A stretch of 34,270 nt of DNA from an uncultured Candidatus Saccharibacteria bacterium (lineage in GTDB: Bacteria; Patescibacteriota; Minisyncoccia; Minisyncoccales; Staskawiczbacteraceae): positions 1 through 34,270 of the forward strand of contig CAYIJR010000001.1 in assembly GCA_964363825.1 (NCBI GenBank). Reading direction: 5' to 3'. Of the stretch, positions 4,096-24,381 are shown piece by piece. The position numbers were made by a program, and so were the translations under genes. The stretch's first letter is position 1. Every line of letters begins with the position of its first letter. Below the pieces are notes generated by a model. It saw only the letters and a program-made list of their open reading frames with translations, was not told the origin of the DNA and did no database searches.

Positions 4096-4119
4096 ATTAC
4101 CCTTATCTTACCACTTTTT

Positions 4120-4386
4120 TTACTCAAGAGAAATAATTTGCAATCCCTTCTCTTTAATTTCTTCTTCTGGCCAAAATAATTTGTCTGTTTTAAATTTTAA
4201 AACATATGTCACTTTTTTCTCTATTTTTCTGCCGGTGTACTCTTTAGTTTTTGGATCCCATTCTTCAAGAATTAATTTGTCGCCTTCAGCAACATCAAAA
4301 TCGTTAAGGCGGAGCTCAAACTTTTTCTTGCCTGAAACAATTGCGTCAAAATACTCTGGCCAAATTTTTTTCTTGATTATTTCCAT
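4120..4386 (-). CDS. DUF3850 / ASCH-superfamily (PUA-like fold) small protein
   Basis: 88 aa. KIWPEYFDAIVSGKKKFELRLNDFDVAEGDKLILEEWDPKTKEYTGRKIEKKVTYV matches the DUF3850 pattern (WPEYF...G.K.FE.R.ND..F.vGD.L.L.E.d..tgeyTGR). Its ATG lies 2 nt after the stop of the AbrB-like gene. Confidence 0.75.
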   Translation of the reverse strand: MEIIKKKIWPEYFDAIVSGKKKFELRLNDFDVAEGDKLILEEWDPKTKEYTGRKIEKKVTYVLKFKTDKLFWPEEEIKEKGLQIISLE

Positions 4387-4388
4387 TA

Positions 4389-4727
4389 CTACTTATTATT
4401 CTTTTTGCTTTTCCAATCCTTAATGGTAATGGTTTTCCTGTCGTAGGTTACAATTAACTTTTGCTTTTCCTTGATTTTTAATTCACTAGACCTGTTGCTT
4501 AATAAGACAATTAGCGAAATTTCCAGATTTTGAGGTGAAAATCTGGAAAAATAAGGAGGTTTGCCATACGGCAAGCCGACGCATTTTTACGAATTTTCAA
4601 CCAAAATATGTAAATTGCAGTTGAAGTCTTATCAAGTAACAGGTCTATTAACAATATCAGCGGGAATCACCAGAGACAAGCTTCTCCTACCCGTACGCGT
4701 AACTTTTCTTATGTATGTTTTTTTCAT
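4389..4727 (-). pseudogene. AbrB/MazE/SpoVT-family DNA-binding protein gene interrupted by a small inverted-repeat element
   Basis: The 5' part (4632-4727) encodes MKKTYIRKVTRTGRRSLSLVIPADIVNRPVT*. The 3' part ends ...SELKIKEKQKLIVTYDRKTITIKDWKSKKNNK* (stop 4389-4391). Removing 4489-4647 restores one 59-aa in-frame SpoVT/AbrB-like ORF. Confidence 0.7.
4487..4647. mobile_element. 157-bp MITE-like element with 18-nt terminal inverted repeats and a TA target-site duplication
   Basis: The structure is TA|GACCTGTTGCTTAATAAG (4489-4506) ... CTTATCAAGTAACAGGTC (4628-4645)|TA, with the TIRs 16/18 complementary. It contains an internal perfect 11-bp hairpin (4521-4531 / 4538-4548) and no coding capacity. 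A related copy lies at 23557-23632. Confidence 0.65.
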
Positions 4728-4736
4728 AGTATTATT

Positions 4737-4776
4737 TTTGCTCCGTAGCATGCTCCGTAGCATGCTACGGAGCAAA
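4737..4776. repeat. 16-bp-stem palindrome containing a 12-nt tandem duplication, between the MNT stop and the AbrB-like start
   Basis: TTTGCTCCGTAGCATG (4737-4752) is the exact reverse complement of CATGCTACGGAGCAAA (4761-4776). CTCCGTAGCATG occurs twice in tandem (4741-4752, 4753-4764). As a result, 4752-4773 is also a perfect 22-nt palindrome. Confidence 0.7.
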
Positions 4777-4803
4777 TTACGCGGCATTTATTTTTTATAA
4801 TTT

Positions 4804-5184
4804 TTATTTTTTATTTCCTATTCTTGCATATTCTCTCTTATACTTTAAAAACCTTTCAGATTTAAGAAACTTCTTCATAAAATATATTAATTTTTCCCCG
4901 ACATTGCCAGTATCTTTTAGGATAATGCTTTTTGCAATAGGCGGAGCCCAATCTGGCGCAAAATTATGTTTAAAGTAATTTTCGTTTACCACGTGCACAT
5001 CTAAATTATAACCTTTCCATGTCTTTTTAATTCGATCTTTTCTTTTTTCGGTGATCAGTAACAAATCCCAGTCGCTATCTGGCCTTGGTTTACCATATAC
5101 CCTTGAACCACACATGAGAATCGCTAGTGGCGAGTATTTTTTCGTTAAGTAATCAACAATTTCTTGTAATTGTTTATTTTTCAT
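4804..5184 (-). CDS. Minimal nucleotidyltransferase (MNT / Pol-beta superfamily) protein
   Basis: 126 aa. GSRVYGKPRPDSDWDLLL matches the GS-x(n)-DxD signature of small MNT-type nucleotidyltransferases. Its start overlaps the ppa stop by 11 nt. Confidence 0.8.
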   Translation of the reverse strand: MKNKQLQEIVDYLTKKYSPLAILMCGSRVYGKPRPDSDWDLLLITEKRKDRIKKTWKGYNLDVHVVNENYFKHNFAPDWAPPIAKSIILKDTGNVGEKLIYFMKKFLKSERFLKYKREYARIGNKK

Positions 5185-5612
5185 CTAAGCATTTATTAAT
5201 AAGCTCCACCGCTTCGTTCTTCCCAAGGAATTTACCCACCTTAACTACTTTACTAATGCGATGATCAAAAACATGCAGTACAAACTTAGCCAACTTCTTT
5301 TCAATTTCTTCGTTCACTACTATTTCTTCTCCGGGTATTTTGGCAAGAATATTGTGATCCTCCTTATGATCTTCGATTTGTTGCATAAGACCTATTGGTT
5401 CACATTCTATAATCTGCCCTTTTTTTTAACTTCTGTTCAGTAATGACAAAACAATCCAGGTTGTCGCCATCACCACTTGTCGTTTTTAAGATGAAACCAT
5501 AGGGAAATGGATACTTGCGTGAAACCGTAAAAGTTTCACGATATTCCAAAGTTTTCTCGTTATATACGTTTTTCTGGTCAGAACCAGCCTCATTTTCTAT
5601 AAATACCTTCAT
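5174..5612 (-). pseudogene. ppa: Family I inorganic pyrophosphatase, reading frame broken in an A8 run
   Basis: The N-terminal ORF (5400-5612) carries YPFPYGFI and GDGDNLDCFVI. The C-terminal ORF (5174-5386) carries EDHKEDHNILAKIP (the De.geDdKiiav motif). The C-frame is open back to 5425 as KKGQIIECEPIGL. Dropping one A from the mRNA A8 run (5420-5427) gives a continuous 145-aa PPase. Confidence 0.8.
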
Positions 5613-22932: not shown

Positions 22933-23544
22933 TTAATTAAATAGTATATCTTTAAAAAGTGACAAATCAACATCTTGGCAGCCCCTTACTTCAAAAACCG
23001 TCGCGCCGCTAGCCTTGGCAGCGGCTACCCCATGGGGAGCGTCTTCTACAATGATACACTCTTGCGGCGTTAGGTTAAGAGTTTGGAATGCTTTCAGATA
23101 AATTTCTGGATCTGGCTTGGGTTTTTGCACTTGGTCGTTGCCAATAATAACATCAAAGAAATCATAGAGGCCAGCTGACTTTAACATCAGCGAGAGAGTT
23201 TCATTAATAGAATTTGAACAACAAGCAAGTTTAAATCCTCTTTTTTTTAAGTGTTTTAGAAGAATAATTTTTGAGTAATCCGGCACGCAGTATTTGGGAA
23301 TAATATCTTTGGTGTGCTGCTGTTTCACGCCATTAATGAATTCTCGCAGACCCATAGGCAATCTTCCTTGTTTTTCTAATTCTTCAATTTTTTTACGGGT
23401 TGGCAAACCATTAAAGTAATTTTTATGTTCTTGTTCGTTTATTTGGACGCCAAAATAGCCCAGCGCTTTGTTAAGCGCTTCAAAATGACCTTGAGGCATA
23501 TCCACAAGCACCCCATCTAAATCAAACAGTATTGCTTTAATCAT
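22933..23544 (-). CDS. HAD-IA family hydrolase (beta-phosphoglucomutase/phosphatase-like)
   Basis: 203 aa. The four HAD motifs are ILFDLDGVLVD, CCSNS, KPKPDPEIY and VEDAPHGVAAAKASG. Confidence 0.85.
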   Translation of the reverse strand: MIKAILFDLDGVLVDMPQGHFEALNKALGYFGVQINEQEHKNYFNGLPTRKKIEELEKQGRLPMGLREFINGVKQQHTKDIIPKYCVPDYSKIILLKHLKKRGFKLACCSNSINETLSLMLKSAGLYDFFDVIIGNDQVQKPKPDPEIYLKAFQTLNLTPQECIIVEDAPHGVAAAKASGATVFEVRGCQDVDLSLFKDILFN

Positions 23545-23556
23545 ATTCTTGGTTAT

Positions 23557-23632
23557 TAGGCCTGTTGCGAAATAAGAATTTGTGCCTAAATTTCTGTATT
23601 TCGCTTACTAACCTTATTTCGCAACAGGTCTA
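23557..23632. mobile_element. Short (72 bp + TA flanks) second copy of the MITE-like element seen at 4487-4647
   Basis: The structure is TA|GGCCTGTTGCGAAATAAG (23559-23576) ... CTTATTTCGCAACAGGTC (23613-23630)|TA, with the TIRs 17/18 complementary. Its TIR matches the copy-1 TIR at 16/18. The subterminal AATT..G.GC..AAATTTC is similar in both copies. The element supplies the last 6 codons and the stop of the GDPD gene. Confidence 0.5.
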
Positions 23633-24381
23633 TTAAAAAAAGTTAGGGCTTTTTGGGGGAAATCAGTACAAATCCCGTCAAATTCATATGATGCTATGTT
23701 GTTCCACAATGCCTCCGGATTACCAGAAAAAGGGTGACGTTCTCCTTTATGAAGCTCTGGTGAAATAACATATATTTCCTTTTTTGCATCTTTACAATAG
23801 TTGAAAAAGTCAGAATTGTAAAGACCTTCCTGCCACTCATCAGCCCATATAATATCAATGGATTCTAAATATGATTTTATATCTAAAAACGTATAAACAG
23901 CGGGACCATAATTTTTTTCTCCCACTGAAACGCCGATTTTACACATTGGGTAGCGTTTTTTTATTAATTGTATATCTTTTAAAAGAACATTGAAGATAAA
24001 TACTTGTTTTTCCAACTTATGGTCTTTAATTTCTTGGCAGGCCTTGTATATAAGATCAAGATTGTCGTAATCTTTAATATGTAAAGCAATAACTTGGCCA
24101 GGTTTAAGCAAATCTGATAACCTCCCTGCAAAGCCTTCAAACGAAGGAATAAGCTCTTGAAATATTTTATCTTTGCTGATTAATTTTTGATACTCACAAT
24201 CACGTACGTTGACATCAATGCCAAAGCTATGGCTCAGATTTTGATCGTGGACAATCATAACTATTCCATCCTTAGAAAGCCTCAAATCTGTCTCAAGAGA
24301 AAATCCGCGCTTTAAGGCTTCATTAAGCGCCCTTAAAGAATTGGGGGCGTATTCTATGCCCCTATGGGATAAGATAAGCAT
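23614..24381 (-). CDS. Glycerophosphodiester phosphodiesterase (GDPD) family protein
   Basis: 255 aa. Motifs are LSHRG, ETDLRLSKDGIVMIVHD and a downstream HIK. The C-terminal NRPVAK* is encoded by the inverted-repeat element. Confidence 0.8.
   Translation of the reverse strand: MLILSHRGIEYAPNSLRALNEALKRGFSLETDLRLSKDGIVMIVHDQNLSHSFGIDVNVRDCEYQKLISKDKIFQELIPSFEGFAGRLSDLLKPGQVIALHIKDYDNLDLIYKACQEIKDHKLEKQVFIFNVLLKDIQLIKKRYPMCKIGVSVGEKNYGPAVYTFLDIKSYLESIDIIWADEWQEGLYNSDFFNYCKDAKKEIYVISPELHKGERHPFSGNPEALWNNIASYEFDGICTDFPQKALTFFNRPVAK

Follow-up and report, generated by a model that had tools for sequence, protein, structure and literature searches.

A TA-flanked palindromic element that splits an AbrB-type gene of a Patescibacteria bacterium is probably a MITE of an IS5/PIF-Harbinger-like family

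What kind of mobile element splits the SpoVT/AbrB-type (MazE_antitoxin) gene on the minus strand at positions 4389-4727 of a 34,270-nucleotide stretch of DNA from an uncultured Candidatus Saccharibacteria bacterium (assembly GCA_964363825.1, contig CAYIJR010000001.1; the whole stretch is called the window in the following), and which machinery brought it there? The original prediction, made from the sequence alone, had described a MITE (miniature inverted-repeat transposable element) of 157 bp, flanked by a duplicated TA as is typical for IS630/Tc1-mariner-type insertions, whose precise excision restores the open reading frame (ORF). That an inverted-repeat element splits a gene of the AbrB family and that this element is a non-autonomous MITE is upheld by the comparison with other genomes and metagenomes, while the TA duplication and the mariner affiliation have to be given up. 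The element, copy 1 of the window, is very probably a non-autonomous MITE of an IS5/PIF-Harbinger-like insertion sequence (IS) family that is widespread in genomes of Patescibacteria (candidate phyla radiation, CPR) and in groundwater metagenomes and that is moved by the transposase of full-length partner elements.

Copy 1 occupies positions 4488-4646 on the plus strand, the reference orientation of the family, and comprises 159 bp, namely an A, the 157 bp GACC…GGTC and a T, with boundaries set by the flank statistics of the family and by a pair of empty and filled sites. Its terminal inverted repeats (TIRs), retrieved by a TIR-pair search as GACCTGTTGCTTAATAAG at 4489-4506 on the plus strand and GACCTGTTACTTGATAAG at 4628-4645 on the minus strand, are 18 nt long, complementary at 16 of the 18 positions (two mismatches) and have TA at each side, and the left one recurs without a mismatch at the left end of the full-length insertion sequences L084 and L120. 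Sites matching the end pattern with at most three mismatches number four in the window, where chance alone would give 0.05; with the family profile, nhmmer finds copy 1 at E = 2e-38 and, in the window, two copies only. Short, non-coding, bounded by TIRs and devoid of an ORF of its own, copy 1 has the build of a MITE. Over its entire length it is an imperfect palindrome (single-stranded DNA fold of -35.4 kcal/mol, z = -8.15 compared with shuffles), with a central fold-back at 4529-4606 (plus strand; symmetry centre 4567/4568) that contains the stem-loop GGTTTGCC-ATAC-GGCAAGCC and the motif AAGGAGG at 4553-4559. The inner perfect hairpin (4520-4531 / 4538-4549) exists as predicted, but comprises 12 bp, not 11. 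The AAGGAGG had been described as outward-facing; it is present, but not as a credible ribosome-binding site, with a central position in the element, with G71, G74 and G75 paired to the opposite arm in the consensus fold (C-paired in 12/24, 15/24 and 18/24 copies, respectively) and with a TTG at a distance of 1 nt as the sole downstream start codon.

The flanks of the family as a whole reveal what was duplicated upon insertion. Family counts rest on an exact-pattern scan with one genome per species and are a lower bound; more than 118 stretches carry the MITE pattern with differing flanks, most of them in metagenome-assembled genomes (MAGs) of Patescibacteria, with Staskawicz-, Falkow-, Moran-, Nealson-, Uhr-, Magasanik-, Roizman- and Gracilibacteria and the 'Patescibacteria group' as listed hosts. 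Among the matches listed, ends could be paired into 82 elements, most often 155-158 bp long, and TA is found on both sides in 78 of these. The pattern around 81 copies from other genomes is, more extensively, A-N-T-A|GACC…GGTC|T-A-N-T, as position -4 is A and position +4 is T in 76 copies each, the flanking 3-mers, mostly AAT or ATT, are identical in 64, and the two middle bases agree in direct-repeat orientation in 62 copies versus 5. The duplicated triplet is not linked to the orientation of the element (AAT 19, ATT 19). An empty site, L187, reads ...AAATC-AAT-GTTTAGAC, and its filled homologue L181 reads ...AAATC-AAT-A[GACC…GGTC]T-AAT-GTTTAGAC. The duplication is 3 bp long (A-N-T), the element starts with A and ends with T, and the apparent TA consists of one duplicated base and one base of the element; a 2-bp duplication would explain neither the near-invariance of positions -4 and +4 nor the direct-repeat agreement between -3 and +3, and is rejected. 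Other duplications considered were a 5-bp TAWTA (15/81) and a TTA/TAA triplet with an asymmetric element (31-39/81), compared with 64/81 for ANT. A TA flank alone is no evidence for a mariner-type element.

In the AbrB gene, the left duplication lies at 4485-4487 (ACT on the plus strand, AGT on the gene strand) and the right one at 4647-4649 (ATT on the plus strand, AAT on the gene strand), where it represents codon 27 (Asn) of AbrB. The minus-strand ATG at 4727 opens MKKTYIRKVTRTGRRSLSLVIPADIVN, and the 5' fragment at 4632-4727 consists of 27 genuine codons (4647-4727) followed by the foreign RPVT and a stop from the element, so that this ORF ends with ...IPADIVNRPVT; the C-terminal part ...SELKIKEKQ...NNK comes later, in the 3' fragment ELKIKEKQKLIVTYDRKTITIKDWKSKKNNK with its stop at 4389-4484 (minus strand). 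The second half had been predicted in another frame, a claim which is corrected here, as the 113 codons from 4727 to 4389 hold both gene halves in one frame. The gene has probably been inactivated, because three in-frame stops brought in by the MITE truncate the product to 31 residues. The true insertion amounts to 162 nt, the element at 4488-4646 plus one 3-bp duplication, and its removal restores a protein of 58 amino acids, the length of the intact homologues, which scores 32.1 or 31.0 bits against PF04014 (cut-off 24.7) depending on the restoration. The predicted 159-nt deletion also keeps the frame and gives a 59-amino acid protein that passes as MazE_antitoxin (27.1 bits), but this protein is one residue too long; either fragment alone gave no hit against PF04014.

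Uninterrupted relatives of the gene do exist. A search of 5.8 billion protein clusters retrieved four of them (P0001-P0004), 63-87% identical, and all four possess the junction IV(D/G/K)-ELK, one residue shorter than the IVNSELK of the 59-amino acid version. The closest is encoded on contig L119 with shared neighbours, namely AbrB, DUF3850/ASCH and a CAP-domain protein, and there the empty syntenic site reads ATTGTTGACGAATTA. The ancestral gene of this lineage was, to judge from these comparisons, a gene of 58 codons with ...IV(N or S)ELK...; the candidate empty sites are GATATTGTTAATGAATTAAAA and GTTAGTGAATTA, while a TA duplication predicts ATTGTTAATAGTGAATTA and the TA model as originally formulated GTTAATAGTGAATTA.

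The transposase is absent from the window, as judged by tblastn and Pfam scans, and is found in longer elements that share the ends of the MITE. The genome scan contained four pairs of ends at distances of 1014-1053 bp (L084, L046, L060, L110), each enclosing one ORF of about 305 amino acids; L084 and L120 come from the same aquifer as the window, L084 from Hainich well H43. These partners, mostly about 1.02-1.07 kb in size, share the ends and the 3-bp duplication with the MITE, and their proteins match Pfam DDE_Tnp_4 (PF13359) with 85.1 and 85.9 bits (cut-off 24.8), with an N-terminal HTH_Tnp_4 and the visible catalytic motifs DGTE, D(M/L)GF and VEHA/CENA..K.(F/Y)R. An IS630-like transposase with matching TIRs had initially been suggested as a target to look for; the TIR-matched transposase is of the DDE_Tnp_4, IS5/PIF-Harbinger type, and it is because of these protein domains that the family is assigned to IS5/PIF-Harbinger. 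With the L084-type protein as query, 102 related loci were confirmed in metagenomes, largely of the groundwater type, and 80 were kept; in 71 of the 80, the distance between paired ends is 1016-1224 bp and mostly 1033-1067 bp, within A-N-T-A / T-A-N-T flanks. A search of the protein database yielded 4416 relatives at E ≤ 1e-40, mostly on contigs of about 1-1.5 kb and some named 'transposase [Patescibacteria group bacterium]'. Complete copies with AAT duplications are present in an NCBI Patescibacteria MAG (L203) and in L205, the latter on a 43-kb chromosomal scaffold amid genes for seryl-tRNA synthetase, Mur ligase, PBP and MreC.

The full-length elements L046, L060 and L110 are cyanobacterial, and their proteins are approximately 43-45% identical to the Patescibacteria one; as the 18-bp ends are shared, the end sequence is far more conserved than the transposase. 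Smaller MITE families with the 18-bp ends occur in cyanobacteria (Aphanocapsa MAG; L020, L036, L063, L068, L073) and Acidobacteria (Blastocatellia MAG; L048, L051, L105), 137 bp and 117 bp in length and with unrelated interiors. In the MITE-rich Staskawiczbacteria MAG MHPA01000025 (L111:35-433), a partial ORF is 33% identical to residues 171-305 of the L084 transposase, and a second, distant DDE_Tnp_4 element may reside in this genome.

How the insertion could have come about follows from these components. A transposase of about 305 amino acids with HTH_Tnp_4 and DDE_Tnp_4 domains would be supplied from elsewhere by same-end elements of about 1.02-1.07 kb, would bind the 18-bp ends (A)GACCTGTTGC-NN-AATAAG and would excise the MITE, which would then be pasted at a triplet A-N-T (in most cases AAT or ATT) that is cut with a stagger of 3 nt, and repair of this cut would duplicate the triplet. 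In this way the 159-bp MITE would have entered codon 27 (AAT or AGT) of the 58-codon SpoVT/AbrB-type gene and added 162 nt. Mobilization in trans, the best-supported reading, and cut-and-paste chemistry are both inferred.

Several observations weigh against this assignment. The two triplets at the AbrB site differ, AAT versus AGT, a mismatch which makes it necessary to assume a later mutation or an exchange between copies, and the nearest intact AbrB allele is just 87% identical, with the pre-insertion sequence of this lineage reconstructed. No transposase is known from the source genome, and the identity between MITE and full-length element is limited to approximately 18-24 bp at each end; consideration of the MITE as a simple deletion derivative of the full-length element was rejected on the grounds of this short match. 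The best NCBIfam match of the partner proteins, 'IS5 family transposase' NF033581, reaches 70.5 and 73.9 bits, half the cut-off of 140, and the partner transposase is a divergent relative of the IS5 equivalogs. Finally, only 40 of 60 full-length copies have the same middle base in both triplets of the duplication. The mismatches, nearly all at the free middle position, are attributed to recombination or to chimeric assembly of 1-kb repeats, an unproved explanation in favour of which it can be said that flank swapping between such repeats would leave mismatches precisely there.

These points have to be set against the competing explanations. An IS630/Tc1-mariner-type (Stowaway-like) MITE that duplicates TA, with the gene restored upon removal of 157 bp plus one TA, would agree with the TA at both ends here and in most family copies and with the open frame above the Pfam cut-off that the 159-nt deletion leaves, but the near-invariant -4/+4 positions and the direct-repeat match at -3/+3 are not accounted for, and neither is the L187 empty site, which holds one AAT and not AATAAT. 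Moreover, copies that lack TA on one side show perfect 3-bp duplications, GGT in L036 and ATA in L059, all full-length partners encode DDE_Tnp_4 and none an IS630-type transposase, and the extra codon is absent from all four intact homologues; a TA duplication is very improbable, and the model is regarded as already refuted. The low coverage of the source contigs (3-4.6x) might point to an artefact, with the interruption produced by chimeric assembly or by the collapse of a repeat into the gene. The filled allele is, though, present with the same junctions and 99.8-100% identity in three separate assemblies from Hainich groundwater well H51 (0.1-µm fraction; ERZ1292627, ERZ1292623, ERZ1292643), and the junctions carry the canonical A-N-T flanks of the family, which leaves an artefact as the least credible of the explanations. 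That the split gene still works, either as an in-frame insertion of the type of Rickettsia palindromic elements or through removal or bypass of the hairpin at the RNA level, draws on an insertion length of 162 nt, a multiple of three, on two gene halves which are intact and in frame, and on the strong hairpin formed by the insert. Three in-frame stops, the failure of either fragment alone to match the AbrB domain, the lack of a match to an intron or ribozyme family and the absence of any hint of splicing make a functional split gene highly improbable as well.

The fold-back deserves separate consideration. In 24 non-redundant copies, the 49-pair full-length hairpin is paired to 95.6%, compared with 79.7% in shuffled controls and 35-48% in slid registers, and compensatory changes occur at 30 pairs. 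The reference strand shows 61 G·U pairs compared with 12 A·C pairs (23 versus 9 pair positions; window 4489-4645 included among the 24 copies), counts which represent cells and not independent events. This five-fold excess of G·U on one strand is seen although the copies lie either way relative to neighbouring genes. The family could, accordingly to its rival interpretation, be kept as a strand-specific RNA or single-stranded DNA hairpin with a function for host or element, such as transcript stabilization, processing, attenuation or a transposition intermediate, with the landing in AbrB being incidental; besides pairing, compensation and strand asymmetry, the length held at 155-158 bp across several candidate phyla speaks for it. 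Against it stand the lack of an orientation bias relative to flanking genes (none found; 17 opposite, 11 same), the absence of a match in Rfam 15 and tRNA scans of the whole window, by which a known RNA family or intron was ruled out for copy 1, and the absence of a site within the MITE in a promoter/terminator scan of 4100-5300, in which counts were at chance level. The central stem-loop also does not qualify as a simple intrinsic terminator; its T-run begins about 6 nt past the stem. The covariation of the arms may reflect hairpin selection, joint recognition of both arms by one transposase or arm-to-arm conversion, and a hairpin function as the reason for which the family is kept is considered unlikely. 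Of a similarly speculative nature, and rather doubtful, is the extended proposal that selection in several lineages of Patescibacteria maintains the full-length, strand-asymmetric fold-back, which would serve as a structured module of RNA or single-stranded DNA, be it a regulatory or processing hairpin exploited by the host or an obligatory hairpin intermediate of IS5-like transposition. With the IS5/PIF-Harbinger-like MITE as the preferred explanation, the locus is ordinary biology, and the co-varying full-length fold-back is a modest curiosity.

Placed among known systems, the family combines features of several. IS5 family groups with a single ORF include ISL2 and IS1031, and target motifs of IS1031 and IS5 are TNA and YTAR, respectively. 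Shared with the IS5 family are the size of the partner (about 1 kb) and its single ORF of about 300 amino acids, the HTH and DDE domains, in which a conserved basic residue follows the E, TIRs of 17-18 bp and a short duplication with the centre-free consensus A-N-T; distinct are the score at about half the NCBIfam equivalog cut-off and the triplet ANT in place of TNA or YTAR. Eukaryotic PIF/Harbinger elements and their Tourist-like MITEs resemble the family in the DDE_Tnp_4 transposase (85 bits), in 3-bp duplications and in short palindromic non-autonomous derivatives which share the ends alone with the autonomous element, and differ in that the host here is bacterial, a second Myb/SANT-type ORF is lacking and the triplet is AAT/ATT instead of TTA/TAA. 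Canonical Harbinger elements create 3-bp duplications, and relatives create duplications of 0, 2 or 3 bp (PMC12730594). The short duplication (2-4 bp) at a preferred triplet that is expected of the DDE_Tnp_4 superfamily is here the 3-bp A-N-T. With IS630/Tc1-mariner elements and Stowaway-like MITEs, copy 1 has in common that it is short, palindromic and seemingly flanked by TA, but TA is not the duplication and the partner transposase belongs to another family. Copy 1 qualifies as a MITE in all the defining features that were tested and departs from IS630/mariner in both duplication and transposase, and it fits a divergent member of DDE_Tnp_4 with ANT as target.

That MITEs occasionally break genes is well known, also from the reduced genomes of Rickettsia and Coxiella (PMC10969869). 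The approximately 100-200-bp palindromes of Rickettsia palindromic elements, Coxiella QMITEs and Neisseria Correia elements are likewise multicopy and mostly intergenic in compact genomes, with an occasional copy within a gene (PMC10969869). Unlike Rickettsia palindromic elements, copy 1 carries three stops and is not read through in frame, and in contrast to the hairpin MITEs of small genomes its family can be linked to an autonomous partner and to a duplication of defined length (3 bp). Full-text searches of a paper collection turned up no account of MITEs or insertion sequences of Patescibacteria/CPR.

The further copies that the original prediction proposed to look for are thus abundant in public genomes, and one more is present in the window itself. 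This copy 2 (23558-23631, plus strand; core 23559-23630, 72 bp) is a 74-bp internally deleted derivative surrounded by perfect ATT duplications at 23555-23557 and 23632-23634, and the minus-strand GDPD gene at 23614-24381 takes its final five codons (RPVAK) and its stop from this copy. Homologues of GDPD were inspected as a check of a 2-bp versus a 3-bp duplication; the nearest is 64% identical, and the C-termini are variable after ...FF. Within window positions 23544-24381, the RPVAK terminus derived from copy 2 replaces a predicted ...NQEYD, the stop of which would overlap the beginning of the HAD hydrolase gene located downstream, and copy 2 now lies 14 nt upstream of the HAD hydrolase start codon.

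Whether the MITEs are active, as surmised, depends on the genome considered. Copies with 99-100% identity occupy differing sites in MAG021, which possesses at least 18 loci with the end motif, and in one Staskawiczbacteria MAG, so that recent activity is evident in other Patescibacteria genomes, but copy 1 itself shows signs of decay with its two TIR mismatches and one mismatch between the duplicated triplets, and its closest relative elsewhere is 82% identical. MITEs of the family land mostly just outside genes, yet can inactivate genes. Tiny perfect palindromes rich in GC, CCGCCAGCTGGCGG, TCCCGCAGTATTGCGGGA and CCTGCCTGCCGGCAGGCAGG, are inserted or substituted within some MITE copies (L061, L096, L100, L087, L018 and L071 in MAG021; L041, L101), recur across copies and MAGs and may constitute a second, even smaller class of repeats.

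Small Patescibacteria genomes carry an abundant insertion-sequence/MITE system, which accounts for contig breaks and orphan contigs of about 1 kb in such metagenomes. The MITE family can serve as a strain-level marker, and a transposase with defined ends and a defined target is testable as a genetic tool for organisms that have almost none.

In the neighbourhood of copy 1, the DUF3850/ASCH gene (4120-4386, minus strand) starts 2 nt after the AbrB stop, and on this co-oriented gene the insertion may be polar. AbrB/MazE-type and DUF3850/ASCH genes (window 4120-4727, L119:39-480) form a conserved, tightly spaced two-gene cassette with a layout resembling toxin-antitoxin systems. That the destroyed partner is the 'antitoxin-like' one argues against a classical toxin as its counterpart, and as PADLOC and NCBIfam searches with AbrB, the ASCH protein and the neighbouring nucleotidyltransferase gave weak sub-threshold hits only, an assignment to a known defence or toxin-antitoxin system cannot be made. 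Positions 4737-4776, immediately upstream of the start codon of AbrB, hold a perfect 18-nt inverted repeat TTTGCTCCGTAGCATGCT / AGCATGCTACGGAGCAAA made of 12-nt direct repeats. In L119, a related motif has been retained upstream of the uninterrupted AbrB gene, and the repeat of the window may be the operator of the AbrB regulator itself.

Other genes of the window encode SecDF, SecA and MurB and constitute a large surface-polysaccharide cluster; secA displays about 67% DNA similarity to a Patescibacteria MAG. Together with the origin of the contig in the 0.1-µm groundwater fraction and the taxonomic spread of the MITE, this similarity is the basis on which the contig is assigned, as probable, to the CPR. 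In the inorganic pyrophosphatase gene (5174-5612, minus strand), a stretch of eight A's (approximately 5420-5427) contains a frameshift which leaves two ORFs of 70 amino acids, and upon removal of one A a continuous ...KKGQIIECEPIGLMQQIEDHKE... results. A pseudogene, slippage-prone phase variation and programmed frameshifting are possible explanations for this split, and identical 70+70 gene calls are found in the independent assemblies L200 and L201.

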